DNA from: Gammaproteobacteria bacterium
GTDB lineage: Bacteria > Pseudomonadota > Gammaproteobacteria > Eutrophobiales > Eutrophobiaceae
Reading direction: 5' to 3'
Assembly: GCA_965116495.1 (NCBI GenBank)
Contig: OZ220696.1
Location: forward strand, 384,001 to 448,000
Length of the DNA stretch: 64,000 nt
Shown here: piece after piece, positions 1,415 through 22,087 of the stretch
Layout: every line of letters starts with the position of its first letter
Position numbering within the stretch: position 1 is the first letter of the stretch
Notes under the pieces: generated by a model
What the model saw: only the letters and a program-made list of their open reading frames with translations
Told to the model about the DNA's origin: nothing
Database searches by the model: none
Program-made: the position numbers and the translations under genes

Positions 1415-1469
1415 TGGGGTCAGGTCGCACAATGCACACTATAGCTGTGCATTGTGCGACCTGACCCCA
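1415..1469. repeat. REPIN-like hairpin doublet made of two RAYT-element ends (family A)
   Basis: TGGGGTCAGGTCGCACAATGCACA, 7-nt loop, exact reverse complement; arms identical to ends of element 19442-20467; TGACCCCATTTCCG tandemly repeated at 1462-1489. Confidence 0.9.
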
Positions 1470-1496
1470 TTTCCGTGACCCCATTTCCGTGCGAGG

Positions 1497-2354
1497 TCAG
1501 GTCACAGCGCTTGTGAGCGTATCCTCCAGAACGGTCAATCCCATCCCTGATAACATCGGCAGGTAGTAATTCCGGTGGATCTTGTTGACCTTCGGGGTTA
1601 AAGCGCCGCGCATCCCGAGCCACACCATCATTTCCACCGCTTCGGCGCCACCACGTTCCATCCATTCATCATGAGGGATATCGACCAGGCTTTCCGGATC
1701 GTCTTCGATCCGGTCAAGAAATTCTTCGTCCCAGTCCGAGTTCATATGGCCGAAACGATCGCCGTGCAACTGATGAGAAAGTCCACCGGTGCCCACAACA
1801 ACAACACGCGCATCATCGGGATAGGACTCTACGGCAGTGCGCAGTGCGTGTCCAAGTTTCCATAGCCGGTGCGGCGTCGGTAACGGATGCTGCAGCACGT
1901 TGACCTGGAAGGGCACGGTCCTGACGCTCCAGTCCGGCTCATGATCAAACAATAACGGCAATGGCACCAGGATGCCATGGTCCATCACCATGTCCTGGCA
2001 AATGGTGAGATCAAATTCACTCTCTACCACCAGCGAGTTGGCCAGGTGCCAGGAAAATACGGCATCACCTTTTACCGCCGGCAGCGGACGCGCGCCCCAG
2101 CCTTCATCACCGATAGGGTATTCATCGGCAACACCCATCGCGAACGTCGGGTACTTGTCGAAAAAGAAATCGGTGCCATGATCGTTGTACAGAACGATGG
2201 CGTGAGTTATACCGACGTCCTTTAACCAGGCTTTTGCAGGCTTATAACCGTCAAACAGGGGCTTCCACCCCGGCGTCTCCTGCTGGTTTTGATCGAAAGC
2301 CACGCCAATCGAAGGAACGTGGGACGAACCGATACCCGCAACTAGTCTACCCAT
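1497..2354 (-). CDS. ligB: Class III extradiol dioxygenase beta subunit (protocatechuate 4,5-/gallate dioxygenase-like)
   Basis: SSHVP, YNDH, DEGWG, DHG, GTGGLSHQ motifs; next to alpha subunit. Confidence 0.85.
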   Translation of the reverse strand: MGRLVAGIGSSHVPSIGVAFDQNQQETPGWKPLFDGYKPAKAWLKDVGITHAIVLYNDHGTDFFFDKYPTFAMGVADEYPIGDEGWGARPLPAVKGDAVFSWHLANSLVVESEFDLTICQDMVMDHGILVPLPLLFDHEPDWSVRTVPFQVNVLQHPLPTPHRLWKLGHALRTAVESYPDDARVVVVGTGGLSHQLHGDRFGHMNSDWDEEFLDRIEDDPESLVDIPHDEWMERGGAEAVEMMVWLGMRGALTPKVNKIHRNYYLPMLSGMGLTVLEDTLTSAVT

Positions 2355-2379
2355 TTTTTTGCTCCACTGTGTTTTGCCG

Positions 2380-2748
2380 CTACATATTTTGCCGCAATGG
2401 CACGTTGCGGGTTTTCATGAATTCTTCCACCGATTCGCCACGCTGCTGCGCACCGATGGGGACCAGGCCATCACCGGTCATGGCGCCGACTTTCAACAGC
2501 ATATAGATGTTGCCGCCGCCTTCTTCTATCAGTGCCTTCCAGTCCTTCTCTTTAACCTTTTGCTTCTCCCACGCGGAAAGACCGTAGTTGTTCATGTAGG
2601 CTTCCTCGTCTTTACGATAAGCCTCCCGGTTTTCGGCTTTGTGAAGAGAAAAGGCAAAACTGTTCAGCTTCAGCCCTTGCTGCGACCTTTGCCCGGTGAA
2701 CACACATGTGCCCGGGATATGATCACTGTGACCGGTTTCTCTACTCAT
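2380..2748 (-). CDS. ligA: Extradiol dioxygenase alpha subunit (LigA-like)
   Basis: IPGTCVF...LNSFAFSL..AENREAY..DEEAY...GGNIYMLLK. Confidence 0.85.
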   Translation of the reverse strand: MSRETGHSDHIPGTCVFTGQRSQQGLKLNSFAFSLHKAENREAYRKDEEAYMNNYGLSAWEKQKVKEKDWKALIEEGGGNIYMLLKVGAMTGDGLVPIGAQQRGESVEEFMKTRNVPLRQNM

Positions 2749-2854
2749 TATTCTCTACCTGGTTTGTGAAAAGTTGAAGGGACGCGGACCCCGCCAGACT
2801 GTGCAGTATGCGCATATCGGCACAGGTGATCAATGTACGGGTAGGGGTTCGCAT

Positions 2855-4039
2855 TCAGATCTCCGGCCAGTAATCGAACGGTAGCCCTGTATGTTGCCTG
2901 GCATAGGATATCTGGGAGGTCTCGTCAGACACCAGGTATTCCAGTTCCGCCACCTGCATACGTCGTTCGAAAGGATTGCTGTCGGGGTGGATATGATACT
3001 TGGCCGTGTTCCCGGAGGAAAAACGCTGGCACTGGAGGTTGCGCGCCAGGGCGACGGCGGCATAGCGGTCTAAAATCGTAGCATCGTCTTTTGTAAAGTA
3101 TTCGATCAGCGCGGTGGACAGGACACTCACATCGGCAAAGGCCGCGTTAAGACCCTTGGCGCCGGTCGGCGGGACGATGTGCGAGGCATCACCGCACAGA
3201 AACAAACGGCCATGGGACATGGGTTGGGAGAAAAAACTCCGCAACGGGGTCACGTCTTTCTGGAAGATCTCCCCTCGCACAAGCTCCCAACCGGGTGCGC
3301 CCAGACGCGTATCGAGTTCTTCCCAGATCCGCTCATCGGGCCATTCGTTGAGATCTTCATCCGGTGCGCACTGGAGATAGAGCCGCGATATTTTCGGTGA
3401 ACGCATGCTCAACAGTGCAAAGCCGCGTTCATGATGGCAAAACATCGCTACATCTTTCGACGGAGGCGCTTTGGCCATCACACCGAGCCAGCCGTAGGGA
3501 TAAACATTCTCGTACGTCTTGAGGACGCCGGCCGGGATCGAATGACGCGAAGGACCATGAAAACCATCGGCCCCGATAACGAAATCACAGCTTATTTCCT
3601 TATCCACGCCCTCGTGAGTGTATTTCACTGTCGGGGAATCGCCCTCGATGCCTTCGATTGCCGTGGCGGGCGCCTCATAGAAAACCTTGTGATCTTCCGC
3701 TGCCAGCGCACCCAACAGGTCCTTGGTAAGCTCTGACTGACCGTATATCGTGACGCCAACCCCTATCAGCTTGTCGAAATCGAGAAAGTGATGCTCATTA
3801 TGCAGGCCGATGACCACACCCGGATGATACATGCATTCCTTTTCCAGGCGTTCGCCGACACCTGCCTTGATCATCAGTTCTACCGCGTTCTTCTCCATGA
3901 CACCGGCGCGAATGCGACTTTCGACGTATTCACGGCTTTTCCTTTCCAGGACGACACTTTCGATCCCGCGCTGGCGTAATATCCAGGCCAGGAGCGAACC
4001 TGCCGGGCCGGCGCCCACTATCACGACTGGTACATGCAT
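2855..4039 (-). CDS. pobA: p-hydroxybenzoate 3-hydroxylase family flavin monooxygenase, divergent active site
   Basis: GAGPAG, RIRAGV, DGFHG, GDASHIVPPTGAKGLN; substrate-contact tyrosines appear substituted (see findings). Confidence 0.8.
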   Translation of the reverse strand: MHVPVVIVGAGPAGSLLAWILRQRGIESVVLERKSREYVESRIRAGVMEKNAVELMIKAGVGERLEKECMYHPGVVIGLHNEHHFLDFDKLIGVGVTIYGQSELTKDLLGALAAEDHKVFYEAPATAIEGIEGDSPTVKYTHEGVDKEISCDFVIGADGFHGPSRHSIPAGVLKTYENVYPYGWLGVMAKAPPSKDVAMFCHHERGFALLSMRSPKISRLYLQCAPDEDLNEWPDERIWEELDTRLGAPGWELVRGEIFQKDVTPLRSFFSQPMSHGRLFLCGDASHIVPPTGAKGLNAAFADVSVLSTALIEYFTKDDATILDRYAAVALARNLQCQRFSSGNTAKYHIHPDSNPFERRMQVAELEYLVSDETSQISYARQHTGLPFDYWPEI

Positions 4040-5073
4040 TGTCTTGTCTCCTGGTCCGGATTATATTCGTTTAAGCGGGCAAATACACTGCGGGCGTTGC
4101 CCTCAAAGATGGCCTTTTTCTCGTCTTTGTTCAGTGCATTGTTGTTATCGATGTAACGTTTGGTGTCGTCGAAATAATGGCCGGTTTCAGGGTCTATGCC
4201 GCGTACTGCACCTATCATTTCAGATGCAAACAGGATATTTTTGGAGGGGATTACATCCACCAGCAAATCAATCCCGGGCTGGTGATAAACACAGGTATCA
4301 AAGTAGACATTGTTCATCAACAATTCATCGAGCGGAGGCAGTCCCATCATGTCGGCCAGGCCGCGGAATCGCCCCCAGTGATAGGGTACTGCGCCGCCAC
4401 CATGGGGGATGATGAACCTGGTATCCGGGAAATCCCGGCACACAGTCGATGTCATTAACTGCATAAAGGCAGTAGTGTCGGCGCTCAGGTAGTAGGAACC
4501 GGTGGTCTGAAAGGCATGATTACAAGCCCCGCTCACATGGATCATGGCGGGGACATCCAGTTCGCACATTTTTTCGTATATCGGATACCAGTAGCGATCT
4601 CCCAGGGGAGGGGAGTCCCAGTGGCCGCCCGAAGGGTCCGGATTCAGGTTAAACCCGACAAAGCCGAACTCAAGCACACAACGCTCCAGTTCCAGAACGG
4701 CATTACTTAATCCTGCCCCCGGTGTCTGGGGTAACTGGCAACCTCCGGCGAAGTTATCCGGGTATAACTGCGTGATGCGATAGATTAACTCGTTACAGTG
4801 CTCAGACCAGAATTTACTGGTGCTCTCATTGCCGACATGATGCCCCATCCAGCTGGCGCGCGGCGAAAATATGGTGAGATCGATACCCCGGGTCCGTTGC
4901 AGTTTTAACTGTGCCCCTTCAAGACTCTCCCGCAACTGGTCATCACTGATATCAACGACCCCTTTTTCATGGTGAAAGTGTGGGTTATCGGCCAGTTCCG
5001 CTTTTTGTTGCTCGCGGTACTCGCCCAGCGCAGCCGGCGCCGTGGTGTAGTGCCCGTGGCAATCAATAACCAT
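4021..5073 (-). CDS. ligJ: 4-oxalomesaconate hydratase
   Basis: IDCHGHYTT, FSPRAS, IPHGGGAVPYHWGR, LFASEMIGAVRGIDP. Confidence 0.92.
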   Translation of the reverse strand: MVIDCHGHYTTAPAALGEYREQQKAELADNPHFHHEKGVVDISDDQLRESLEGAQLKLQRTRGIDLTIFSPRASWMGHHVGNESTSKFWSEHCNELIYRITQLYPDNFAGGCQLPQTPGAGLSNAVLELERCVLEFGFVGFNLNPDPSGGHWDSPPLGDRYWYPIYEKMCELDVPAMIHVSGACNHAFQTTGSYYLSADTTAFMQLMTSTVCRDFPDTRFIIPHGGGAVPYHWGRFRGLADMMGLPPLDELLMNNVYFDTCVYHQPGIDLLVDVIPSKNILFASEMIGAVRGIDPETGHYFDDTKRYIDNNNALNKDEKKAIFEGNARSVFARLNEYNPDQETRQCMYQS

Positions 5074-5075
5074 GC

Positions 5076-5804
5076 TCAGTCATTCAGATCGTCCAGTGAA
5101 TCCAGGTAAACCAGGCCGGCTTTTTCCAGGCGCGGGCGCATGTCATAAATATCCAGACCTAAAATGCCGTTCGCCAGTTGTTCACGCTTGCCCGTCTCGT
5201 TTTGTTCCCGGGTCCGGGCAGCAGTCATAACAGGCTCAGCCCAGTGTCTCGGAATCACTACCACGCCGTCATCATCCGCAACTACTACATCACCGGGATT
5301 GACGGCCTGGCCGGCACAGACAATGGGTACGTTTACCGAACCAGGCGTGTTTTTAACCGTGCCCCGGGCAGATACCGCTTTGGACCAAACGGGGAAACTC
5401 ATCTCTTCCAGTATCGCCACATCGCGTACGCCGGCATCTATCACAAGGCCTTTTACACCTCGTGCGCGGGCCGAAGTGGCCAATAAATCACCGAACATTC
5501 CGTCTGTATTGTCCGTGGTGCAGGCAACAACCAGGACATCTCCAGGCCGGCAAAGCTCGATAGCCACATGTAACATCCAGTTGTCGCCAGGCTGGGCCAA
5601 TACCGTAACGGCACTGCCTGCGATCCGGGCGTGTCGGTAAATCGGTCGAATATAAGGTTTTAACAACCCGACCCGTCCCAGCGCTTCATGTACCGTGGCG
5701 ACGCCCAGGGTTCCCAGCGCTTCCACGACCGCGGCATTTGCCCGTTCAATGTTTCGAACTGCTACCGTTCTCATCAGCTTACTTTCCTCATCTTGCGGGG
5801 ACAT
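5076..5804 (-). CDS. ligK: 4-carboxy-4-hydroxy-2-oxoadipate aldolase/oxaloacetate decarboxylase
   Basis: [29 protein letters not shown]; start may be MRTVAV (about 5774). Confidence 0.92.
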
Positions 5805-6861: not shown

Positions 6862-6984
6862 GTTCGCGCTTCTGGTTTGTGTAATAACAGCGTATTTCTA
6901 ATCCGTTCAGCTAACCAATGGGAATTAATTACCCAATCATGCGAAAAAGTAATCCGGCCGTCCTAACCATGCCCCGGTCCATCC

Positions 6985-7035
6985 GGGGACGGACCCCCGC
7001 TGACAACATGCGGGGGCATGCTTAAGTCCGTCCCC
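6985..7035. repeat. GGGGAC-type palindromic repeat (family B) with inner hairpin
   Basis: GGGGACGGAC ... GTCCGTCCCC enclosing CCCCGC/GCGGGG. Confidence 0.7.
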
Positions 7036-7115
7036 AATGCAACATGCCTGTTTCATCTCATGAATAATTGTATAAAAACTGCTATCTTACTGAAAAAACA
7101 TCATGTTGGAACAGA

Positions 7116-8366: not shown

Positions 8367-8367
8367 C

Positions 8368-8432
8368 AGTGATGGGGTCAGGTCGCACATTGCACATGTA
8401 ATGTGTGCAATGTGCGACCTGACCCCATCACT
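8368..8432. repeat. REPIN-like hairpin doublet (family A)
   Basis: 29-bp perfect inverted repeat AGTGATGGGGTCAGGTCGCACATTGCACA, 7-nt loop, between convergent ligR and ligI. Confidence 0.9.
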
Positions 8433-8442
8433 TGCAATATCA

Positions 8443-10157: not shown

Positions 10158-10219
10158 AAATCCTCCAAATTCACCGGAATTTAAAGACTAGGCAGTGCGC
10201 CAGCCCTGCTGTGCCTTCG

Positions 10220-10415
10220 TCAGGAACCCCAGGAATTCATAAGCGCCGCGCTATGGTAAACCGTACCAAACATTAAATGAATGTTCAGTAGTGCCGCCTC
10301 ATGCAGCTCTACCGCCGGAGAGCCAACACACTCTTCCGGAACAACAATATTATAACCACGCATAAAACCGTCCCTATGGTAGAGTCCACGCATACGTTAG
10401 TGGCCACACCCGCTG
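10220..10415 (-). pseudogene. 3' remnant of isochorismatase-family cysteine hydrolase, frameshifted
   Basis: Manual translation AGVATNVCVDSTI / 1-nt deletion / DGFMRGYNIVVPEECVGS...HEAALLNIHLMFGTV; 5' part absent. Confidence 0.75.
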
Positions 10416-10468
10416 ACCTGCCCCCTTGCTGTTTTCAATACATTCGTACGTAAGTTGATGCTATTTGG

Positions 10469-12451
10469 TTAACTCACCAGATCGTCCACTGCTCGTAGAC
10501 CTTCGTCGATGGCTGTGTTACAGAGTGCAACATAACTGGCGTCAGAATTAGCGATCGCAATTCTGCCAAATCGTTTACGGGCTATTTCGTGTGGCCGTTC
10601 TCCCTCTTCATAATCTGGATCAAATAGGGAGTTATACTGACGTGAGTAGCCATGTGGCCAACGGTTTACGGTAAGACCAATAACGTCTTCTCTAACATTA
10701 AAACTTGTTGAATCAAACAGGCTTGCCAACTGTTCCCTGACTTCAACTTCATAATCTTCAAATTCCATTGATAATAATTCTGTCTGTCCCTGACTATGTT
10801 GATCCTGAGGGTTAAGCCCGGAATGCGGATTAACCATCCCACCAATCATGTATATAATCACAGGCTCTTCTGCATTAAGACCCTGTTTATGGTCACCTAA
10901 CGAACGACCATAAGCCAGACATTCATGTAAAATCCGCCCAGGAAAATAAAAACTTCCAGAACCGAGTTCAAGAAGAGGTTTACCGCTACGTAGAAAAACA
11001 CCCACTGAAATGAAGGGCATTTTGACATTGGCTTTGAGAGCATGTTGTTGCTCTACAGGGAGTTCGGGACAAATATGCGGTAAATACATGTGCCATCCGG
11101 CATAGATGCAGTGTTTAGCTTTAACGCGATATGATTCATCTCCACGTACGTAGCTAACTGCTACTCGACTGCCTTTATCGACATTTTTGATACTGGTAAC
11201 TGTTGAATTTAGTCTGATACGAACGTTTGATTCCTCATCATCCAGCTTTGCATAATTCAATCGTGCAGTGGTTAACTCTTCCATAGTTTTTGCTTCAGTA
11301 ACCGCAGGCACCAATTGCCTCACAAGGTTTCTAGTAATAATTGCATTTCCATCAGGTCCGTAGTGACCTTCAAGCGGTGGCATACTGTCAATTTCTTCCT
11401 GGATTTTTCTTCCTTGATCTCCCATCACATGCAATCCAGGTAACCCTGCCCAATGAAATGCTTGGGAAAGTGGCGTGCACTCGGTGGTCAATCCGATCAA
11501 AGCAGATGACTGTCGGGTAAAAATATGATCGGCTGTGTCTTGTGACAAGCCGCAATACTTTGTAACAAAAGTATTGTAACTCATGGAATGAAGAGCAGAT
11601 TTGCGCTCAACTTCTGATAAATCTTCAAACACATCCCTCGTGGACGTGAGGAAGTCATGCAACTCCTTTTTTGCCGCCTCAGGAATTGGCATGTCAGGAA
11701 TATGCTTAACCAAGTTAAATTCGCCATCCTTATTTTTGCGATTCATTGGCTGGATATCGTCAGTCAATGTAACTGCCTTGCCATACTTTTCCTTATCGAA
11801 ACAAATTGAAGGATTTAGATCGAATGCACGTAAACGAAAATCTCCTACTTGTCCTGGCTCGAGACGCTCAAAACTCACACCTATGTCACGCAATAGTTTT
11901 TTTGACTGCTCACTAAAATAGGGAGTTTCCATCATCACACTACCGCCCGGTCCCATGTAGGTTTTCCCATCGTGCGTAAATTCGATACGCTTGGCATGGC
12001 CACCGAAATCATCATGGTTATCAATAATCAGAATCTTTACATTGGGGTCACTGGTTTTTTGTTGGTATGCATAAGCAGCCGTCAAGCCGCTAATACCACC
12101 TCCAACGACGATAAGATCATATTCCTCATTCAGGTCGATTGACTTGCCCCAAGTTTTTCCTGTCCATGCGTGGGCATGAGCGGACTCGAAAGAACCAACA
12201 TGACTACCTCTTAGACCTGTTTTTGCTGGGGGATAATAATCCGGATCTTTCTCAGGAGAATATGAAGGAAGCTGATTCGTAGTGGCAAAAGAAACTCTGG
12301 GAAGAGAACTACCATATGTGGCGAGTGCTGCAGTAGTCATACCTATACCATGTAGCAGATCACGACGGCTTATTAGGCGGTCAAGACCTAACTCTCTTGC
12401 CTTCTTATCGTACTTTTTATATTTCTGCATAGGATTTAGATTTTTTCTCAT
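10469..12451 (-). CDS. Spermidine dehydrogenase (SpdH)-like Tat-exported flavoprotein
   Basis: SRRDLL Tat motif, YYPPAKTGLRGSH, GGGISG, DNHDDFGGHAKR, NRWPHGY, GRIAIANSD; AT-rich; start may be 12430. Confidence 0.8.
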   Translation of the reverse strand: MRKNLNPMQKYKKYDKKARELGLDRLISRRDLLHGIGMTTAALATYGSSLPRVSFATTNQLPSYSPEKDPDYYPPAKTGLRGSHVGSFESAHAHAWTGKTWGKSIDLNEEYDLIVVGGGISGLTAAYAYQQKTSDPNVKILIIDNHDDFGGHAKRIEFTHDGKTYMGPGGSVMMETPYFSEQSKKLLRDIGVSFERLEPGQVGDFRLRAFDLNPSICFDKEKYGKAVTLTDDIQPMNRKNKDGEFNLVKHIPDMPIPEAAKKELHDFLTSTRDVFEDLSEVERKSALHSMSYNTFVTKYCGLSQDTADHIFTRQSSALIGLTTECTPLSQAFHWAGLPGLHVMGDQGRKIQEEIDSMPPLEGHYGPDGNAIITRNLVRQLVPAVTEAKTMEELTTARLNYAKLDDEESNVRIRLNSTVTSIKNVDKGSRVAVSYVRGDESYRVKAKHCIYAGWHMYLPHICPELPVEQQHALKANVKMPFISVGVFLRSGKPLLELGSGSFYFPGRILHECLAYGRSLGDHKQGLNAEEPVIIYMIGGMVNPHSGLNPQDQHSQGQTELLSMEFEDYEVEVREQLASLFDSTSFNVREDVIGLTVNRWPHGYSRQYNSLFDPDYEEGERPHEIARKRFGRIAIANSDASYVALCNTAIDEGLRAVDDLVS

Positions 12452-13032
12452 AAAACCATGTCAATTGTATTGTTTTTAATATGACGCGTGCTCGATGGAT
12501 TATCAAGATTTTATTAATTGGACGAGACAAATAATCTAATTCATTGATGGTAAATTTTTGCGCCAAGCGTGATTGTTTATTTGCAGAACCGAATGACTCA
12601 GGCTTTTTTTGTAAATTGGTATATTCGATAAGCGCTCGAGAGAATGATTCTATGATTGGTTCAGGAGAGCATTGCTCCCAGAAACTAATCGTCACTTTTG
12701 CAAATCGCGCTTACCTGGAAAATTGACGCGAATTTATGCTATAGCGAACCAATTATAAAAGCCTTCTTAAAAAGGGCGAGAAATGCCCCAGACACCGATA
12801 TGTAAGTTAGTATTGGATTTATTTGAGGTGCTACTCGATATAGATCCACCCAAGTTGCGAGTTCAAGAATGGACTGAAAAATTTTATCGAAAGAGTAGAA
12901 CGAAAAGTTAGTATAATTTATATTTTTCGACTATGGTCGTATCCAGAATTTCATCAGGATGATCACTATATTTCATTTTCGTGATTGATTTATTCATTCC
13001 GACTTTTTAGATTATCTAACCAGTGAGATAAT

Positions 13033-13545
13033 CTACTCAACACGTTCAATTTCAAGTTTTCTCGTGCGTACGGCTTCTTCCAGAATCACAATAAGCTCCC
13101 GGTAAACGCCAAAATCCTCCCAAGTACCATCGAAACCACGGGGTACAACAAAGTAATCGCCCGCTGTTAAGGATTGTGCATTACCGGCTGCATCGGTTAG
13201 CACTGATTTACCGCTGAGCACAACAACAAATTGATCATACGGGTAGTTTCTCACACGGTTTTTAACATGCCCTACTTCACCCGTTTTTTTCGGTGTCGAT
13301 TCGAATATAGATACAGAAAGCTCTTCGCCCGTGAACAGAAAACTCCACTTCGCCAGGCGTGTTGCATCGTCCCATGGTGCTACTTTTAGACCAAGTCCAC
13401 TAACCATGTCTGTATTAATTCGTATCGGTGATATAACTTCCTTCGTGGATTGCTCGTCGGCATATGAGTTACTAACTGCCGTAAGTGGAATTAATAGCAC
13501 TAGTATTTTAATTACATATCGTTGTATCTCAGATTGGATATTCAT
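13033..13545 (-). CDS. Secreted cupin (DUF861/EutQ-like)
   Basis: Signal peptide; YPYDQFVVVLSG...AGDYFVVPRGFDGTW. Confidence 0.75.
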   Translation of the reverse strand: MNIQSEIQRYVIKILVLLIPLTAVSNSYADEQSTKEVISPIRINTDMVSGLGLKVAPWDDATRLAKWSFLFTGEELSVSIFESTPKKTGEVGHVKNRVRNYPYDQFVVVLSGKSVLTDAAGNAQSLTAGDYFVVPRGFDGTWEDFGVYRELIVILEEAVRTRKLEIERVE

Positions 13546-13658
13546 TATTAACCTCTAAATTTATCATATTAGCGGCTCGTTTCCTGTTCGCAGACCTTCG
13601 TAAGTTGCTGTATAAGCCAGTGCAACGTAACTTGTATCTACACAGCGTCCATCATGGA

Positions 13659-13672
13659 CTGACCCCATTCTA
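13659..13672. repeat. Solo remnant of family A end
   Basis: CTGACCCCATTCTA, 14-bp match to element right end. Confidence 0.5.
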
Positions 13673-13787
13673 TTTTTTGGCACGTCCGGAAATATTCTGC
13701 TGTTCCGGGTGAGCCGGAATCTTTATACATTATGACCTGTCGAATTAATTTCTGCTTGTGGCATCCAGAATAAATGCGAGTTCCAGT

Positions 13788-13898
13788 GGGCTTGCAGGCA
13801 TTATTGCTGCATCAGCAGGGAACGATCTTTATCATCCGTTACAAGCGATGCTTGTCGGTGGGGCAGGTGTGGTGATCATGTACAAGCTGCATTATTGG
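13788..13898 (+). pseudogene. Internal fragment of ammonium transporter (Amt family)
   Basis: Manual translation GLAGIIAASAGNDLYHPLQAMLVGGAGVVIMYKLHYW; no start, stop at 13923. Confidence 0.7.
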
Positions 13899-14141
13899 CA
13901 GAGTCGAATAGAAAAGAAAGAGTAGGACGATGTATTGAAATTATTGAACGTGATGGATAGAAAGATACAAGAGAGGAACACCGAAGTCTCCGAGGAAATT
14001 CACAGTTTGATTTAAAAGACAGTTACGCAACTATTTCCCATGACAATCAAAGCAAAAACTATTGGTTTCCGGGACTTGAATTGACTATATCTAATATATT
14101 TAACTTGGTAGAATTGTTAATTTCGAACTGGAGGCAAAATC

Positions 14142-16808
14142 GTGGAAAAGAAACTGGAATCAGGTACAAAGGCAATTAACTCCACTCGGAACGGGCAAAC
14201 AAGGCCTTTTGCTTCGGCTCTGATGCTTGTATGTGCGGCAGGTATTTTTTCATCTCCGGCTTTGGCGCAATCAGCCCTTGAAGAAATAACAGTCACGGCA
14301 CAACGCCGGGAGCAGAGCATCCAGGATATCCCTTATAATATTTCAGCCTATTCGGATGAGTATCTTAAGTCCGCCCGGGCCTTCGATATAGGCGACGTCT
14401 CTCGGCTCGTTCCGGGGCTCAATTTCAAGGACCAGGGCGCAGCGCTGCGTTCAAGCCGGAATTCTTTTATTCTGCGCGGCATTAATGCCAATGATTCCAG
14501 GCTCATATTCGGCACCGATGTCAGTTCCGGTGCAGTTTCAATGTATTTCGGCGAGACACCATTATTTTTTCCCATCGTTATGAAGGACATCGAGCGGGTG
14601 GAAGTATTGCGCGGCCCGCAGGGTACTTTATACGGTTCAGGATCGCTCGGCGGGACAATCCGCTTCATACCGAAAGCGGCTGAATTGGGAGAGTTTTCAA
14701 TGGATGCCAATGTGCATCTTGATTCGATGTGGGAATCCGATGAGGTTGGTTATGGCGGTGACGTTGCGGTCAACATTCCCCTGGTGGAAGATACCCTGGC
14801 CTTGAGGCTGGTGGCGAGCTGGGATGACCTGGGTGGCTTTGTGGATGGGGTCGGTCTTGTACAACGTGACAGCAGCGGCGAGCCTGTCCCAAGTGTAGCC
14901 GGAGACCTTGCGAGTGGATATGTGCTGGCTCCGGAAGAGGATACCAACGATACTCAATCTTACATGATTCGCGCCAACCTGCACTGGGTGCCGTCGGACA
15001 CGGTCGATGTCCAGTTGACCTACCTCAACCAGGAGAGTGAAGTAGATGATTTTTCCGGGGTTAACCCCGGCTTTGACGGGGGGCTGGTTGACGCCAGTCT
15101 CGCTAATTTCCCCGGGTCATTCTTTTCCAACGCAAATGCCTGTAATGGAGGCGTCGCATTCTCCAGGGATTTTTTCACCCCAAACCAGACTTGTCTTGGC
15201 GCAGGCGGGAATACGCTCTATGCGAACAGTGGCGTAACAATCCCTGATGCAGGTGACTACGATCACACCATGTTCGTCAAATCAGCCGGCGAAAGTAAGG
15301 CTGACATTTTTAACGCGGAAGTGAATATCGATCTTGGTATAGCTTCGGTTACATCTTCGACTTCCTATTCGGAAGTCAGCTATTTCAATACCCCTGATTT
15401 TACCGGCTTCGATTTGCCTACCAGGGCGCCGGGGGGGTCAAGTGTAGCGACATTTAATTCATTTTATCCGCGGGCTGCCGGTGTTACCTCTTCCTTTGAT
15501 GAAACCGAGCGGTTTACGCAGGAAATTCGCTTCACGTCAAATGGAGATAACAAGGTCGACTACGTTATCGGCGCTTATTATGAAGACAGGGAATCGGTCG
15601 GCAAGACTATTACCACGCAACCGGGGTTAAGTGAATTTGATACGACCATCAATGTGGCAAACCTCGGATTTCCCCGTGGCAGAAACAACGCTAATCACCC
15701 GGACGTCACCTTCGCGGAAGACAGGCTTTTCAAATTTGAAGATATTGCCGTCTTTGGTGAGTTGACCATGCACATAACCGATCAATGGCAGGTTACCGGT
15801 GGTATACGGGCATTCTGGCAGGAATTTTCCCACGACTTTGAATCGTTAATACCGTTTTGCGGTCTGTTTTGTTCAAGCCCCGAGCAGCCCCGGTTTTTCG
15901 AAGGCGGCACGACCGTTAATGATGCAAAGCGGGATTTTGAAGACCAGATTTTCAAGGTCAACACGTCATATGATATCAACGACGATATGATGGCTTATTT
16001 TACCTGGGCCGAAGGGTTCCGCCATGGCGGCGCCAATGCGCTTCCGCAAGGTGGCCGCCAGGCCTCTTTGCCGTCATTGCTGCAGTTTCAACCGGATACG
16101 ACAACCAACTGGGAAGTAGGTTTGAAAGGTTCTCTCTCGGAGCGTATAAACTATTCAATCGCGGCCTATCTTGTCGAATGGGACGATTTCCAGTTTGAAT
16201 CTCTGGTAATAAATGGATTTAAGGTTGTGCTGAATGGGGCTGAAGCCGAAACAAAAGGTATTGAGCTGGAACTGAACGGCAGCCTGGGTGAAGGCATGAC
16301 ATACAATATCGGCTATTCATACGTCGATGCGGAGGTCACAAAGGATTTCGTCGTATCAGACTATGTTGCCGGAACCACAGGGTCCTTTTTTATACCGCCC
16401 TTCACGGTACTCCCCCTTATTACGGTTTCAGATGGCGATCCGTTACCGAGTGTGCCTGACCATACCTTTGCATTCGCTCTCGATTACCTGCAACCACTCA
16501 AGATGAATAACTGGTCGCTTGCCTGGCACGTGGATGGAAAATACTCCAGCGACACACAATCGACATTTAATCAAAATGTGAATCTGGGACGGGATTTCTT
16601 CGAAATCGACTCCTATGCCGTGTTTAATGCATCAGTAGCACTGGAATCCAATGACAACTGGACTGCATCACTGTTTGTGCGCAATATAGGGAATGAACAG
16701 AATTTATCTGCCGGCAATACCGCAGCAGCAGCCGGCGGCGTGCACCAGTACTATTTCACCCTGCGGCCACGCACAATCGGTCTGTCCTTCAATTTCCGCT
16801 ACAATTAA
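14142..16808 (+). CDS. TonB-dependent receptor
   Basis: LEEITVTAQRREQ, IERVEVLRGPQGTLYG, C-terminal RPRTIGLSFNFRYN. Confidence 0.95.
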   Translation: MEKKLESGTKAINSTRNGQTRPFASALMLVCAAGIFSSPALAQSALEEITVTAQRREQSIQDIPYNISAYSDEYLKSARAFDIGDVSRLVPGLNFKDQGAALRSSRNSFILRGINANDSRLIFGTDVSSGAVSMYFGETPLFFPIVMKDIERVEVLRGPQGTLYGSGSLGGTIRFIPKAAELGEFSMDANVHLDSMWESDEVGYGGDVAVNIPLVEDTLALRLVASWDDLGGFVDGVGLVQRDSSGEPVPSVAGDLASGYVLAPEEDTNDTQSYMIRANLHWVPSDTVDVQLTYLNQESEVDDFSGVNPGFDGGLVDASLANFPGSFFSNANACNGGVAFSRDFFTPNQTCLGAGGNTLYANSGVTIPDAGDYDHTMFVKSAGESKADIFNAEVNIDLGIASVTSSTSYSEVSYFNTPDFTGFDLPTRAPGGSSVATFNSFYPRAAGVTSSFDETERFTQEIRFTSNGDNKVDYVIGAYYEDRESVGKTITTQPGLSEFDTTINVANLGFPRGRNNANHPDVTFAEDRLFKFEDIAVFGELTMHITDQWQVTGGIRAFWQEFSHDFESLIPFCGLFCSSPEQPRFFEGGTTVNDAKRDFEDQIFKVNTSYDINDDMMAYFTWAEGFRHGGANALPQGGRQASLPSLLQFQPDTTTNWEVGLKGSLSERINYSIAAYLVEWDDFQFESLVINGFKVVLNGAEAETKGIELELNGSLGEGMTYNIGYSYVDAEVTKDFVVSDYVAGTTGSFFIPPFTVLPLITVSDGDPLPSVPDHTFAFALDYLQPLKMNNWSLAWHVDGKYSSDTQSTFNQNVNLGRDFFEIDSYAVFNASVALESNDNWTASLFVRNIGNEQNLSAGNTAAAAGGVHQYYFTLRPRTIGLSFNFRYN

Positions 16809-16880
16809 AGTCCTTTGCAGTTATCTGTCGAAGCCGCCGCATCCTTTCCGGCGGCTTCATCCCGCACAGCAAACCAGTTA

Positions 16881-16900
16881 CGATCTGACCCCATTCTACA
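16881..16900. repeat. Solo remnant of family A right end
   Basis: CGATCTGACCCCATTCTACA versus CGACCTGACCCCATTCTACA at 22070-22089. Confidence 0.7.
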
Positions 16901-16912
16901 TGGGGAAACAGC

Positions 16913-18130
16913 ATGAACGAATTCAGGAAAGGCTGGGGTCCCTTGCTGGCCGCAATGGTAGGCATGATGTGCGGCTTGCTCACAATAACCAATTACTCAC
17001 AGGGCTTCTTCGTCGGTCCCGTTACGGCCGACCTTGGCTGGTCGGTGCCAGAGTTTTTCTTTGCGTTCACGATCTCGGCCTGTCTGGGACTAATTACTGC
17101 CCCGCTCATTGGTTCGCTCGCATTGAAGTACGGCATCAAGCGCATGGGTATTCTCGGACTCGTCGGGCACGCGCTGGCGTATGTATTGATGTCGCTGAAC
17201 AATGGTTCGCTGGCGCTGTGGTACCTGACATTCGCAGCCCTGGCATTTCTCGGAGCGGGTACGCTGCCGGTCATCTGGACGGCCGTCCTCAACGGCTGGT
17301 TTGAGAAGAATCGCGGCAAGGCAATCGGAATTACCATGGCGGGTACCGGGTTAGGCGCATTCCTGTTACCGCCGATCGCTGAGTTCCTGATTTCCAACTA
17401 TGGCTGGCGGACGGCGTACCAGGGTATCGGTATCGGTGCGTTGGTGGTGTCCTTGCCGATAGTCGTTTTGTTGTTCAATGAAAACCCGGAAGCGGGGTCC
17501 GGCAAAGCAAATTCGACAGCGCCGGATACAAGCTGGGGAGTGACGCGCGCGGAAGCGCTGCGCGGCTACCGTTTCTGGGTGCTCGGCAGTGTGTTGTTTA
17601 TCACTGTTTTTGTCATTGTCGGTTTGCTTTCGAATTTCGAGAGAATCATGGTGGCCCAAGGATTGGCACGCGCGGATATCGCAGGTATCGCGGCGACAAT
17701 GGGGTTGACCGTAATCATTGGCCGATTGCTGGTCGGGGTGTTGGTTGACAAATTCTGGGCGCCTGGGGTCGCAGCGGTATTTATTGTGATGCCCATCATC
17801 GCAATGCTGCTGATGAAATATGGCGCCCCGTCAATGCAGACCGGTATAGTCATCGGTATCGCCATAGGACTTGCCGCAGGCGCCGAACTGGACATGCTTG
17901 CCTATCTTACCGGCCGTTACTTCGGACCTGCACATTACCCGGCAGTATTCGGCGGCATTTTTGCTTTTTTTACGGTTGGCGCCGGTATTGCTCCACCACT
18001 GTTCGGCGCGGGCGCGGCGACCTGGAATGGCTACGGTATGGTACTGAACGGCTCGATCGGATTATTGCTCCTGTCGATCATATTGTACCTGAGCTTGGGC
18101 AAATACCCGGATGCCCGGCGTTCCCCGTGA
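16913..18130 (+). CDS. MFS transporter
   Basis: About 12 TM segments, WFEKNRGKAIG, GAELDMLAYLTGRYFG. Confidence 0.9.
   Translation: MNEFRKGWGPLLAAMVGMMCGLLTITNYSQGFFVGPVTADLGWSVPEFFFAFTISACLGLITAPLIGSLALKYGIKRMGILGLVGHALAYVLMSLNNGSLALWYLTFAALAFLGAGTLPVIWTAVLNGWFEKNRGKAIGITMAGTGLGAFLLPPIAEFLISNYGWRTAYQGIGIGALVVSLPIVVLLFNENPEAGSGKANSTAPDTSWGVTRAEALRGYRFWVLGSVLFITVFVIVGLLSNFERIMVAQGLARADIAGIAATMGLTVIIGRLLVGVLVDKFWAPGVAAVFIVMPIIAMLLMKYGAPSMQTGIVIGIAIGLAAGAELDMLAYLTGRYFGPAHYPAVFGGIFAFFTVGAGIAPPLFGAGAATWNGYGMVLNGSIGLLLLSIILYLSLGKYPDARRSP
18096..18127. repeat. 32-bp direct repeat, copy 1 (copy 2 at 20474-20505)
   Basis: TGGGCAAATACCCGGATGCCCGGCGTTCCCCG identical at both sites. Confidence 0.9.
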
Positions 18131-18404
18131 TGGGGTCAGGTCGCACAATGCACACCGCCCGTAACTGGTTCCACATTAAAAGGTTTTCAAGGATATCCCG
18201 AAGCCGCAAACGCTGGCTCCACCCAGACTGCTTGACCACTACGAATCGGTATTTACGACGCGTCAAAGCGCTATGGCTGCTGCCTATCGGTCAGGACATT
18301 ACACCATGGTTGAAGTGGCGGAGTACTTTGGAGTCAACAGAACTACAGTGGGCCGAACGTTGAAAGAACGAGCCTCAAGTGTGCATTGTGCGACCTGACC
18401 TCAT
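18130..18404. mobile_element. Non-autonomous internal-deletion derivative of the RAYT element
   Basis: Both 25-bp ends (one mismatch); short left subterminal segment joined to a diverged copy of about 20243-20467. Confidence 0.92.
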
Positions 18405-18500
18405 TCACGCTTTCTTCTCCCAATCGTCTGTGGTGTTTGTCCTGGCCAGTGTAATGATTTTGCTCATTGGTGTATCGGTTATTTATCTATTTTGAAGGGT

Positions 18501-19370
18501 TCAGATTATAAAGATTCCTGCGTCAGTATTAACCTGGTCTGATGAGATGTCCGCGTCAGTGTCAGTATTAACTTGGTCCGATGAGGTATCCGCGTTGGTA
18601 TCCACTTCTACCACATCGATGTTTGCGAAGAAATCCATTGTACCGTCCCCGTCGATATCGAGATCGAAGGTGTCGGGGTTGGTATTGATGTCGTGGATAT
18701 CGGAAACGAGATCGGGTTCAATCCAGCGGTAATATTCGCTTTCTTCGGTAATGATGAGGCCGTTTTCATCATAAACGGGGGAACGGCCGGTGCCGTCGGC
18801 GTTTTCGCTGATAGGAGCTTCGCGAGTATAGTATCCTTCTGTATCCATCTCTCCATTTTGGTTTGTGTCAATCCACATTTTTATTTGATATTGCTTGTTT
18901 TCCTCCAGGCCTGAAAACCAGGTAACGCTTCCGAAGCGGTCAAAGCCTAATTCTATCAAGGTATCGCTGGGATTATTCAGGACAATCTCTTCATAGTTGA
19001 TATGTATTATTCGCTGCCACTCGCCAGGATTGCCATTTTCATCTAGTTCCCGGATTAGTAGGTAGGTCATATTAACCATCTCTTGTACATATATTGGCCA
19101 GGTTTGTTTAGAGATTGGCCCTTCAGTCGTTGGGTCAAAGTCGGTATGGTGTATGTCTGACTCTGGTTGCCCCTGCCCTTCGTACAACTGATAGAAATCA
19201 CCATCATCATGATCAAAGTCCATGTAGAGAGCGAAGCCGGTTTCATTGTTGATTACATCGAGGTGTATTGAGTATTTGCTGGTCAGTCCGAGGTCGTCCA
19301 GTGTATTGCTGCCGGTCTGTTCAAGGTCTAGTGTAAATTCGGCCATGTCTTGCATTGTGGTTTTCCTCAT
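18501..19370 (-). CDS. Highly acidic hypothetical protein with Dx[DN]xDG-like motifs
   Basis: 289 aa, D/E/T/N-rich, DTNQNGEMD, DIDGDGTMD, repeated SSDQVNTD. Confidence 0.7.
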   Translation of the reverse strand: MRKTTMQDMAEFTLDLEQTGSNTLDDLGLTSKYSIHLDVINNETGFALYMDFDHDDGDFYQLYEGQGQPESDIHHTDFDPTTEGPISKQTWPIYVQEMVNMTYLLIRELDENGNPGEWQRIIHINYEEIVLNNPSDTLIELGFDRFGSVTWFSGLEENKQYQIKMWIDTNQNGEMDTEGYYTREAPISENADGTGRSPVYDENGLIITEESEYYRWIEPDLVSDIHDINTNPDTFDLDIDGDGTMDFFANIDVVEVDTNADTSSDQVNTDTDADISSDQVNTDAGIFII

Positions 19371-19441
19371 TGAGAATTGGAGAAATCTAAATAACCTTAT
19401 CTAATGCCGGGAGAATAAGCAAATTTATAGGCTTAGTGCGG

Positions 19442-20467
19442 ATGGGGTCAGGTCGCACAATGCACATCGCCCGTAACAGGTTCCAGATTGGCCTGATCTA
19501 TTTGAAAAGCAGGTAGACTATTAGTAGGATTTCAACTAACCTCTGAATAAGTCAGCATTCCGTAACAGGGATTTTGTATAAATCAGCTTTCAAGGATGAA
19601 CTTATGGCAAGACCTCTCCGAATAGAATTTGCAGGAGCACTCTACCACATCACCTCCCGCGGTAACGCACGTGCTGATATATTTTCAGATGATTTTGACC
19701 GTTATCAATTTCTCAAGCTGCTGGGTGAAGCAGGCAAGCGGTTTGGTTGGTTGTGTCATGCGTACTGCTTAATGTCCAACCACTATCACTTGCTCATCGA
19801 AATCGGCCAGCCCGGATTGTCTAAGGGAATGCGCTTCCTCAACGGCGTTTATACGCAACGCTATAATAAACGACATGCCAGAGTAGGGCACTTGTTCCAG
19901 GGCCGGTTCAAAGGAATCCTGGTAGAGAGTGACGCCTATTTTTTAGAGCTGGTACGGTACATTGTTTTAAACCCCGTTCGAGCCCGGATGGTGAGACAGG
20001 CTCAAGAATGGCCTTGGAGCAGTTACCGGGCCACGGCAGGGCTGGCACGCCCCGAACCTTGTTTAACAATTGACAGGGTATTAGCCGAATTTTCGGAAAG
20101 GTGTGACAGTGCAAGAGCGAAGTATCAGGAGTTTGTTAACACCGATCAAAACCAACCCTCACCTTGGGAGAATCTCAAAAATCAAATTTACCTGGGCTCG
20201 GATTCCTTTGTGCAGGAAATGCTGAATCATATAGAACCGGATAAGGTTTCTAAGGATATCCCGAAGCCGCAAACGCTGGCTCCTCCTAAACCGCTTGACT
20301 ACTACGAATCAGCATTTACGACGCGTCAAAGCGCAATGTCTGCTGCCTATCGGTCAGGGCATTACACTATGGTTAAAGTGGCGGAGCATTTTGGAGTCAG
20401 CAGAACTACAGTGGGCCGAGCGTTGAAAGAATGAGCCTCAAGTGTGCATTGTGCGACCTGACCCCAT
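19442..20467. mobile_element. RAYT-like element with perfect 25-bp terminal inverted repeats
   Basis: ATGGGGTCAGGTCGCACAATGCACA at 19442-19466 and its reverse complement at 20443-20467 enclose the transposase. Confidence 0.9.
19604..20434 (+). CDS. HUH Y1 (REP-associated tyrosine-type) transposase with C-terminal HTH
   Basis: MARPLRI, YHITSRGN, HUH motif NHYHLL, GHLFQGRF, YIVLNPVRA, WSSY, HTH VAEHFGVSRTTVGRA. Confidence 0.92.
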   Translation: MARPLRIEFAGALYHITSRGNARADIFSDDFDRYQFLKLLGEAGKRFGWLCHAYCLMSNHYHLLIEIGQPGLSKGMRFLNGVYTQRYNKRHARVGHLFQGRFKGILVESDAYFLELVRYIVLNPVRARMVRQAQEWPWSSYRATAGLARPEPCLTIDRVLAEFSERCDSARAKYQEFVNTDQNQPSPWENLKNQIYLGSDSFVQEMLNHIEPDKVSKDIPKPQTLAPPKPLDYYESAFTTRQSAMSAAYRSGHYTMVKVAEHFGVSRTTVGRALKE

Positions 20468-20473
20468 TCTACC

Positions 20474-20505
20474 TGGGCAAATACCCGGATGCCCGGCGTT
20501 CCCCG
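20474..20505. repeat. 32-bp direct repeat, copy 2
   Basis: Identical to 18096-18127 (3' end of MFS gene). Confidence 0.9.
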
Positions 20506-20522
20506 GGTTGGGCACCGGTACC

Positions 20523-20915
20523 CTATTGTGGCATGTAGTTAATTCTGAAGGGGTTTCCTTCCGGGTCTCTTAATACCGCTTGATACCAACCATAGTAGGT
20601 TTCAAACGGCGGTTTAAGCATTGTTCCACCCAGTTCAACTGCATAATTGCAACGAGCATCAACATCTTCCCGGCTTGATGCACCAAAGGTTATTAAGAGC
20701 GTGTCTGTTTGGGTATCTGGTTTAGTTAGTGACAAAAGCCCGTAGGCATCCAGGCTACTTATGCCGATACAACATGCGCCTGTTTCGAAGCCTCTGAAAT
20801 AATCTGAACGACTTGCCGTTATCTCTTCAAGATTAAATAGTGTTTGATAATACTCAGCAAGGGCAACCATGTTCTTTGCAAACACATTGACATAGAATAA
20901 TGGATATTTATTCAT
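20523..20915 (-). CDS. VOC/glyoxalase family protein
   Basis: AEYYQTLF, GGTMLKPPFETYYGWYQAVLRDPEGNPF; start MNKYP preferred. Confidence 0.85.
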   Translation of the reverse strand: MNKYPLFYVNVFAKNMVALAEYYQTLFNLEEITASRSDYFRGFETGACCIGISSLDAYGLLSLTKPDTQTDTLLITFGASSREDVDARCNYAVELGGTMLKPPFETYYGWYQAVLRDPEGNPFRINYMPQ

Positions 20916-20932
20916 TTTATTTCTTAATAGAG

Positions 20933-21916
20933 TCAAGCTGATTTTCCGTACGTTTTCTCATACATGTAAGCAACATGTTCCCCGGCAGTCGTCTCCGGGA
21001 AATCCAGCTCTCCGGATTCAGGCATGCAGGTAGGGACACATTTGACCTTGTAAAAATAATCAGGATCAAAGAAAGTGGGGCAGGAATAGCGGCTTTTGCC
21101 ACTCTGGTTATTAACGACACGGTGCATATTGGAGCGATATACACCATTGGTGAACACACGCATCATTTCGCCCAGATTGACGACAAACGTGCCTTCTATT
21201 GGAGGGGTTCTGATCCAGTCACCTGCGGAGTTTTGCACTTCCAATCCGCCAATATCGTCCTGCAAAAGCATGGTTAACATACCCCAGTCCGTGTGTGCCC
21301 CTGCCCCAAGTTGATTGGCAACAATTTCGGATTCCTGGGACGGATAATGCAGCAGACGGCCAACCATCACAGGTTCGGATAAGCCCTCGTCGAAATAAGC
21401 CTCGGTCAGATCCAGTGACAAGGCGAGTATCTTTGAAAGCGTTCTGCCCAGGTCCCGCATCAAATCAACATATTCATTAAATGAATCTTTAAAACCCTCT
21501 GGTTGTTCCGGCCATTGATTGGAACCCGTGTTGGGCACTCCTTGTTTCACATAAGGGTGGTTTTCATCCAGGTCATTACCGATAAGAAAGCCTTCTTTTA
21601 AATCGGGTGGCGAACCTTCGTCTAACGTCTGTGCCTTGATAGGTTCGTAGCCGCGAGTACAGGATGAGTTGTTGATATGAACTCTGTTCTTATCCGCTGC
21701 AGGCAAAGCGAAGAATAGTCTTGCCAGCTCAAGATGTTGCTCCATGCGCTCAACAGGAATGCCGTGGTTACTGATATAAAAGAATCCTGTTTCCCTGGAG
21801 GCTTTATGCACCTCCCATGCCACGGCTTTCTTCGCCTCTATATCACCGGAAAAATAAGGGGTAAGGTCAATAACCGGTATCCTGTCAGCGGCCTTTGCGG
21901 GGGTGTAAGTAATCAT
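20933..21916 (-). CDS. 2-oxoglutarate/Fe(II) oxygenase, isopenicillin N synthase-like
   Basis: IPVIDL, GFFYISNHG, HTDWG, HRVV, RYS. Confidence 0.92.
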   Translation of the reverse strand: MITYTPAKAADRIPVIDLTPYFSGDIEAKKAVAWEVHKASRETGFFYISNHGIPVERMEQHLELARLFFALPAADKNRVHINNSSCTRGYEPIKAQTLDEGSPPDLKEGFLIGNDLDENHPYVKQGVPNTGSNQWPEQPEGFKDSFNEYVDLMRDLGRTLSKILALSLDLTEAYFDEGLSEPVMVGRLLHYPSQESEIVANQLGAGAHTDWGMLTMLLQDDIGGLEVQNSAGDWIRTPPIEGTFVVNLGEMMRVFTNGVYRSNMHRVVNNQSGKSRYSCPTFFDPDYFYKVKCVPTCMPESGELDFPETTAGEHVAYMYEKTYGKSA

Positions 21917-22087
21917 AGAATGGGGTCAGGTCGCACAATGCACGTTGTAATCATAGAATGGGGTCAGGTCGCACAATACACGTTGTAGGTGAAGTGACGT
22001 TGTATTTTGGAATCAGCAGAACTGCAGCGGGCCGAACGTTGAAAGAATGAGCCTCAAGTGTGCATTGTGCGACCTGACCCCATTCTA
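21916..22087. mobile_element. Short deletion derivative of RAYT element with tandemly duplicated left end
   Basis: 28-bp inverted repeat TAGAATGGGGTCAGGTCGCACAATGCAC; 38-bp tandem duplication 21909-21984; interior matches the last codons of the transposase. Confidence 0.9.

Follow-up and report, generated by a model that had tools for sequence, protein, structure and literature searches.

Junctions at a TIRtron in a gammaproteobacterial genus suggest that its Y1 transposase joins each element end independently

Introduction

How the REP-associated tyrosine transposases (RAYTs; REP, repetitive extragenic palindrome) move repeats, and how the hairpin repeats called REPINs arise, are open questions in the field. 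Both are raised by a 64,000-nt stretch of DNA, called the window here (contig OZ220696.1, positions 384,001 to 448,000), from the single 4.34-Mb contig of a Gammaproteobacteria bacterium of the Eutrophobiaceae (genome G000). The window holds a 1026-bp element in which a Y1 transposase gene lies between terminal inverted repeats (TIRs), and the same end sequence, called the arm here, also bounds shorter pieces down to hairpins. An initial annotation had read this set as a gene-containing unit that was itself copied, with hairpins as the end point of its internal deletion. Within the genus, the same sites survive in filled, shrunken and empty form. From their junctions, we consider it probable that the enzyme joins each end independently, in rolling-circle style, after a nick 6–8 nt outside the arm. 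It likely moves itself, small hairpins and neighbouring genes.

The intact element and its transposase

The element and its gene lie at the following positions.

19442..20467, + strand: intact TIRtron, 1026 bp, with perfect 25-bp TIRs (19442-19466 and 20443-20467) headed GGGGTCAG
19604..20434, + strand: TIRYT gene, 276 amino acids, Pfam Y1_Tnp match at E 1.6e-11

The boundaries in the initial annotation were confirmed, with both 25-bp ends perfect, and its assignment to a RAYT-like HUH/Y1 enzyme with TIRs is supported by the motifs, the Y1_Tnp match and those ends. It had regarded TIRs on such an enzyme as unexpected; TIRtrons and TIR dimers had in fact been named in 2013 by Di Nocera, De Gregorio and Rocco (PMC3733652), who introduced the terms TIRtron and TIRYT, gave a GGGGWSAS consensus and reported TIR dimers. 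Judged by the motifs in Table 1 of PMC6006769, the element is a TIRtron and its gene a TIRYT. These names correspond to TnpA-Y1 subclass 2.1 (Quentin et al. 2018, PMC6006769) and to group 1 RAYTs (Bertels et al. 2017, PMC5581495), which the latter work describes as the most insertion sequence (IS)-like RAYT group, with 6.2% duplicates. The TIRs and TIR dimers of TIRtrons are already known; what is new here is comparative evidence on their behaviour. A literature search that mostly excluded subscription journals gave no publication dealing with the mobility, cargo or cut sites of TIRtrons.

The HUH motif of the protein is N59-H60-Y61-H62, and the catalytic Y119 lies within YIVLNP (119-124); FQ and WSS motifs are also present. 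All four motifs are invariant or nearly so in an alignment of 41 homologues from which rows containing stop codons were excluded. The NCBIfam REP-associated tyrosine transposase model scored 72.2 bits, below its cut-off of 80. The structure model (pLDDT 81) has a RAYT core, with E. coli TnpA-REP (4ER8, E 1e-7) as the best fold match, and a C-terminal four-helix tail at residues ~231-275. By this model the tail is a helix-turn-helix (HTH), the feature by which subclass 2.1.2 is recognised. Profile matches to HTH families are weak: HTH_28 is matched in 16 and HTH_23 in 13 of the 41 members at E ≤0.01, and the match of the query protein itself falls under the Pfam cut-off.

G000 has one intact transposase gene, fragments at window 18180-18368 and at genome 1.139 Mb, and no other Y1 gene. 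Three of the 22 other genomes of the genus (G001, G010 and G016) carry the intact gene at 96–97% amino-acid identity, in element copies that are 93–97% identical. The dN/dS ratio among the four intact genes is 0.06–0.17. The gene is intact and under purifying selection. Further afield, a plasmid search gave a homologue at E ≤1e-40 in 1 of 72,556 records (49% identical). The TIRs of homologues at 47–64% identity start with GGGGTCA(G/A)G(T/C)C, followed by 12–14 element-specific bases. Paired TIRs were seen at 24 of 76 metagenome homologue loci, many of which are too short to show both ends; two of these are copies of the G016 type. Arm sequence follows the protein clade, and the second half of the arm differs between clades. 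The protein tree is long-branched and served only for this comparison of arm with clade.

The 23-mer end sequence has 11 matches in the window (≤3 mismatches) against 0 in 100 shuffles. The intact element carries the CAAT variant of the arm. A single arm folds weakly (−5.4 kcal/mol), and no fixed GTAG was found at the outer flank, where composition is variable. G000 as a whole has 114 arm matches (≤5 mismatches) and 44 inverted doublets (two arms around an interior of ≤300 bp). Doublet interiors are mostly 39–44 nt long, and nearly all doublets lie within short intergenic spacers. The arm is present in 16 of the 22 other genomes of the genus and in none of 18 genomes outside it. Arm-bearing database records are mostly titled uncultured Gammaproteobacteria; exact arm matches also occur in contigs titled Aggregatilineales and Dehalococcoidia (L196, L206, L207), through transfer or misbinning.

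Footprints at the ends

One footprint is a truncated self-copy placed before an arm, with the same outer start as the arm's own flank. We call this a stutter. Stutters occur at 56 of 367 distinct arms, including 18 of 109 in G000, where the stuttered arms are spread round the chromosome. Among 20,000 random sites the rate is 0.39%, and on the inner side of arms it is 0 of 341. In 40 of the 56, the copies share a 6–8 nt flank upstream of the GGGG box, while the copied part ends anywhere between 0 and 33 nt into the arm. Of 42 junctions that could be scored, 24 lack microhomology on the arm side. The same kind of stutter occurs at 20 of 106 arms in other TIRYT families. Larger events start at the ends as well: G001 has a 503-bp tandem duplication starting at the left end of a mini element, and G010 has a duplication of ~4.4 kb starting at a right end.

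A second footprint is found in the doublets. The outer 7 nt vary freely from one doublet to the next, but in any one doublet the two sides tend to be mirror images: a mean of 5.0 nt agree, compared with 1.4 in 2000 shuffles. This mirroring drops to background at −8 or −9 from the GGGG box. In 83 doublets from other genomes, the values are 4.2 and 1.1. When doublets at different sites are nearly identical, both outer 7-mers are usually retained. Between doublets with 80–90% interior identity, flank differences are seen at 55% of sites, in most cases on both sides at once (the pairs compared are not independent). Gene-bearing elements showed no mirrored flanks at 20 loci, so a requirement of the enzyme for mirrored flanks is ruled out and the mirror likely arises inside the folded hairpin, by copying within it. 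Stutters, in turn, do occur at the ends of these unmirrored gene-bearing elements. The strand bias of doublets relative to replication showed no clear pattern in 12 scorable copies.

Empty sites and the outcome of insertion

Empty orthologous sites, which the initial annotation had proposed to look for, were found, for example at the 3' end of a major facilitator superfamily (MFS) transporter gene and at 21916, 1415 and 8368. The features at the MFS gene are as follows.

18096..18127, + strand: 32-bp direct repeat, left copy, at the 3' end of the MFS gene
18130..18404, + strand: older internally deleted copy, 275 bp, made of the left arm, a 24-bp leader, the last 201 bp of the interior and the right arm
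18501..19370, − strand: cargo open reading frame (ORF), 289 amino acids, between the two element copies, in a block of 44.6% GC
20474..20505, + strand: 32-bp direct repeat, right copy, followed by the original last 10 codons of the MFS gene

The 32-bp direct repeat, which the initial annotation did not report, is exact and encloses the internally deleted copy, the 289-residue ORF and the intact element. The insertion left this duplication: the 32-bp sequence is double in G000 and single in G022, G015, G019, G008 and G014, where the site is empty. The MFS gene (window 16913-18130) is now 10 codons shorter, its new stop codon coming from the outer flank of the element. The other sites show loss. 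At 21916, filled alleles lack ~48–66 bp of spacer, and ~20–45 bp of host DNA is missing at 1415, 8368 and genome sites 193396, 606501, 2009403 and 2022999, as judged by eye against relatives at 80–95% identity. This count leaves out genome sites 601089, 1481902 and 1483247 (unclear) and 591826 and 2013802 (no comparable allele). With a 32-bp duplication at one site and variable host loss at seven others, there is no target duplication of fixed length.

Probable movement of the gene-bearing unit

The four intact copies adjoin the same MFS gene but have four different junction pairs. In G001 the intact copy lies within the MFS gene, and in G010 it follows the gene immediately; in G000 and G016 it is further downstream, by 1.3 kb and ~6 kb. 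G000 and G016 share the left end of the older copy at the MFS stop, including its left junction, while the cargo before the intact copy differs; in other relatives too, the slot of the 289-residue ORF is filled by different cargo. This ORF has no match in Pfam, NCBIfam, PADLOC or Atlas. The older copy had been reported as a 275-bp derivative that keeps the transposase 3' end, and this stands; its interior is 90.5% identical to the intact element and its right arm has one substitution. In G016, right ends are joined to the equivalents of window positions 20937 and 23242, and the intervening DNA is deleted.

Pieces with transposase sequence are also found at unrelated places in the genomes of G000, G008, G016, G019, G020 and G022. 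In contigs from sequencing runs X1, X3 and X4, depth over the gene region is 1.5–2.1 times that of the adjoining DNA and two substitutions are present, and X3 and X4 yield an extra 1666-nt contig that begins with the right end. Because of the roughly doubled depth, the substitutions and the extra right flank, a second near-identical copy likely lies outside this assembly. These runs come from one study, possibly the source of the assembly, and are not independent. A contig from run X5 that joins 20473 to 18096 might represent a circle or tandem of the composite; it was not used, since a false join via the 32-bp repeat is equally possible, and X5 has no cover just downstream of 20478. The proposal that the gene-containing unit is itself copied therefore likely holds, given the new junctions and the pieces at unrelated loci, with the qualification that such copying appears mostly local, all intact copies being beside the MFS gene.

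Window 1-32000 carries an aromatic-degradation cluster (Rieske oxygenase, LigAB, amidohydrolases, P450, UbiD, TonB receptors, MFS). The cluster is 87–98% identical between species against ~77–91% for core DNA of the same species, and because of this difference it was likely exchanged horizontally between them.

Shrinkage and the origin of the doublets

The remaining pieces in the window are as follows.

1415..1469, no strand: hairpin doublet, 55 bp, deletion product of a 100-bp transposase-tail mini
1470..1503, no strand: 14-bp right-end stutter, then an older left-arm remnant common to G022
8368..8432, no strand: hairpin doublet, 65 bp, with CATT variant arms and no traceable derivation from the present transposon
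13659..13672, + strand: right-end remnant within a block of 42.6% GC (10171-14014)
16881..16898, + strand: right-end remnant upstream of the MFS gene
21916..21953, + strand: stutter, 38 bp, an extra copy of the outer flank plus left arm of the mini that follows
21954..22087, + strand: mini element, ~134 bp, both arms around the transposase 3' tail, 6-nt outer flanks mirrored

A 172-bp derivative had been described at 21916-22087. The piece is real, but it consists of a ~134-bp mini preceded by 38 bp that repeat its left end in tandem. The mini has orthologues in G001, G016 and G019, and the site is empty in G015, G008 and G014. The two doublets with 7-nt loops were confirmed. At 1415, the first interior bases and the right flank match those of the 100-bp mini that G001 and G019 hold there, and the site is empty in G008, G014 and G005. 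The 8368 doublet, in contrast, does not belong in the decay series in which it had been placed, because the interior is already just 5 nt long in its G001 and G019 orthologues; its site is empty in G022, G008 and G014. Both solo remnants are real, and the 14-mer CTGACCCCATTCTA occurs six times in the 4.34-Mb genome, always within window 13659-22087. At the 16881 site, G001 has a full mini, and G022, G015 and G016 have the same remnant. G010 carries right-end units in a tandem array there, G019 a different repeat family, and in G008 and G014 the site is empty. At L058:6426-7340 (G010, minus strand), a left end with a 5' gene fragment is followed by five tandem right-end units, upstream of the MFS gene.

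A size series runs from the intact 1026 bp through a ~120-bp mini and a 100-bp mini to doublets of 80, 69 and 53 bp. Many minis have one common junction, at which the left arm is joined to element interior position ~899. The genome doublets 147434, 193396 and 2022999 (80, 81 and 69 bp) continue the series, and a longer form of the last is present in G019. The proposal that REPIN-like doublets are the end point of internal deletion is thus borne out for 1415, with its 100-bp orthologues, but not for most doublets. Of 40 interiors of ≥20 nt, only four match the element better than all 30 of its shuffles and 36 have no significant match, and derivation of the common 39–44-nt interiors from the element gave no signal against those shuffles. 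With these four, 2022999 and 1415, about 6 of the 44 doublets appear to trace to the transposon. The common doublet class is older, has its own subfamilies and copies itself with the same arms. In sister species, the same intergenic spacers hold other repeat families, headed GGGGTCAGAGTAAAA, GGGGACAGACCACG and GGGGACGGAATTG (seen in L133 and L134, which are orthologues of genome site 1481902, and in L061 and L097). The GGGGTCAGAGTAAAA-headed repeat matches the ends of a different TIRYT gene.

Mechanism and alternative explanations

In the mechanism that we favour, the HUH tyrosine enzyme would bind the GGGGTCAG-headed arm and nick one strand 6–8 nt outside it. The fixed 5' end would then be joined to whatever 3' end is nearby, each end being handled independently; these steps are likely. 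The chemistry would be attack of a 3'-OH on a 5'-phosphotyrosine, as measured for REP transposases (PMC8266576, PMC3333891), and we infer both which strand is nicked and that the HTH tail sets the cut distance. One-ended joining of this kind would give short stutters, tandem duplications, end-adjacent deletions and the capture of genes between two ends, so that the stutters, the variable host loss or gain, the one-ended deletions and the captured cargo would all follow from one nick-and-join rule. Internal deletion of copied units would have produced the ~120-bp mini, which spread and shrank to hairpins. The free sequence of the flanks argues for a cut set by distance rather than by a guide sequence, and the junction scar predicts that the enzyme cuts 6–8 nt outside the GGGG box.

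Several observations count against this mechanism. The junction offsets range from ~0 to 12 nt, some falling at about 0–5 or 9–12 nt, and some microhomology is present at 18 of the 42 stutter junctions. Inspection of the junctions for a fixed cleavage dinucleotide found none. The ~4.4-kb duplication in G010 is only about 90% identical, the G001 assembly has 8% contamination, and loci from related genomes are not independent. The intact cognate gene never exceeds one per genome, and its four copies all adjoin the same MFS gene, a pattern that a sedentary gene with altered flanks would also produce. The case for movement of the unit itself is further weakened by the cluster around it, which is likely exchanged between species. 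Six relatives (G018, G007, G014, G020, G019 and G012) have 46–134 arm matches each without an intact cognate gene; four of the six are 97–98% complete in 1–3 contigs. The support comes from junction patterns in genomes, and the nicked strand cannot be read from double-stranded sequence.

The perfect 25-bp TIRs and the real deletion series would suit a clean two-ended transposon that is excised and inserted whole, with all doublets as its deletion products, and so would the retention of both outer 7-mers by near-identical doublets at different sites. Such an element would not be expected to lack a constant target duplication, to leave many one-ended joins, solo arms and stutters, or to coexist with so many doublet interiors that have no significant match to it, and we consider it unlikely. 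About as improbable is a sedentary, domesticated gene that travels only with the exchanged aromatic-degradation cluster, its derivatives coming from deletion, recombination between arms and polymerase slippage at hairpins. The single copy beside the MFS gene and the high identity of the cluster across species speak for it, and long hairpins are prone to deletion. Against it stand the transposase pieces at unrelated loci, the likely second near-identical copy, and stutters that are confined to the outer side, start within a narrow range, often have no microhomology and occur at unmirrored gene-bearing ends too. The least probable of the three is cross-mobilisation: other GGGGTCAG-type TIRYTs would have moved most of the doublets, or these would be relics of a gene since lost, and the enzyme in the window would act in its own vicinity only. 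In favour of this, some genomes rich in arms have no cognate gene, and other TIRYT families share a GGGG(T/A)CA head and occupy the same spacers. However, G000 has no other Y1 gene and yet its stuttered arms are spread round the chromosome, and protein clades differ in the second half of their arms. Independent joining of the two ends by the TIRtron enzyme remains our preferred explanation.

Relation to known systems

The element shares with described TIRtrons a Y1/HUH gene between TIRs with a GGGGWSAS head, a C-terminal HTH, the NH[YF]H, FQ, Y---NP and SS motifs, and dispersed single TIRs and dimers. REPIN-RAYT systems or REPtrons of groups 2 and 3 (PMC3116915, PMC3333891, PMC8266576, bioRxiv 10.1101/2021.07.10.451892) resemble it in their single-copy gene, tandem end amplification and ~85-bp intergenic doublets with conserved arms and a variable spacer, and its fold is closest to E. 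coli TnpA-REP. In contrast to these systems, its single arms lack both a GTAG foot and a strong palindrome, and its junctions fall a set distance away, not at C|T. In Pseudomonas, REPIN clusters repeated in tandem have been described. A rolling-circle-like amplification model able to capture flanking genes has been put forward for E. coli BIMEs (PMC8266576, PMC3333891). Bertels and Rainey describe RAYTs as not transposing themselves and place REPINs only in groups 2 and 3.

IS200/IS605 elements (IS608, ISDra2) have the same HUH-Y1 fold and likewise no fixed target duplication. Their motif is Y---Q, their subterminal hairpins are asymmetric, a guide defines their cut sites, and they are present in many identical copies; here we see Y---NP, symmetric ends, sequence-free flanks and one chromosomal gene copy. 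Miniature inverted-repeat transposable elements are also non-autonomous internal-deletion derivatives that keep the TIRs of the parent. Their parents are DDE transposases with fixed target duplications, which are absent here. One fixed end, one variable end and the capture of neighbouring DNA recall IS91, ISCR and Helitron elements, which use another transposase family and have a distinct origin and terminus, unlike the two equivalent inverted ends and Y1 enzyme here. These rolling-circle elements have been named as gene-acquiring (PMC3333891).

A broader view is possible, and we put it forward tentatively: TIRtrons, the largest RAYT group, may be active one-ended, rolling-circle-like transposons with two equivalent ends and measured-distance nicking, which copy themselves locally, shuffle toxin-antitoxin and defence genes between their ends, and give rise to REPIN-like hairpins by internal deletion. 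They would then be a living intermediate between insertion sequences and domesticated REPIN-RAYT systems. If this is true, the RAYT group with the widest distribution is a mobile element that shuffles genes, and REPIN-like units arise again and again, not once.

Cargo and accessory genes

Transposase-derived ends often adjoin genes of toxin-antitoxin, restriction or other accessory type. In relatives, BrnT, Gp49/RelE-like, PIN/VapB, GmrSD and PD-(D/E)XK-WYL genes lie next to such ends, and plain arms adjoin McrBC. These neighbours and ends were picked by eye, and some, such as the 309.8-kb mini of G019, have ordinary neighbours. A PLD-nuclease gene lies between a left-end remnant and a mini at 1.138 Mb in G000, 735 kb away from the MFS slot. 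In G005, that slot holds an 8-kb accessory block which ends in a right-end remnant and contains a PLD nuclease 91% identical to the G000 gene. A further homologue in G019 (80%) has no arm within 1.5 kb. A genome-wide link of arms to low-GC accessory genes was rejected: 17 of 63 arm clusters adjoin such genes, as do 497 of 2176 gaps, a result that also speaks against the favoured mechanism. As arms overall are not enriched beside such genes, cassette capture is a minority behaviour, and the cargo link holds only for transposase-derived ends.

At G010:685-693 kb (L072), same-direction arm arrays with a repeated inner segment surround PIN, PD-(D/E)XK, AAA and WYL genes. A Thoeris cassette (ThsB, ThsA, ThsB) at L080:3658-8288, which is G000 genome 3102157-3106787, is bounded by two doublets of one subfamily, and its thsA is split by an inserted 603-residue transposase-like gene. 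Movement of this cassette with the arms was rejected: one of 22 relatives gave a single 70% match, to part of it, in an arm-free genome.

Within the window, the 42.6%-GC block at 10171-14014 carries flavin amine oxidase-like and cupin genes and is absent in the compared relatives. A RadC-like gene unit at L335:4625-5290 (G000 ~1.137 Mb) has dispersed copies at 85–88% identity, eight in G022 and several in G000, and is possibly another mobile unit. Other dispersed repeats of ~110–145 bp (L079:15673-15785 and L076 4119-4261) are present in many copies in G001, G005 and G022.

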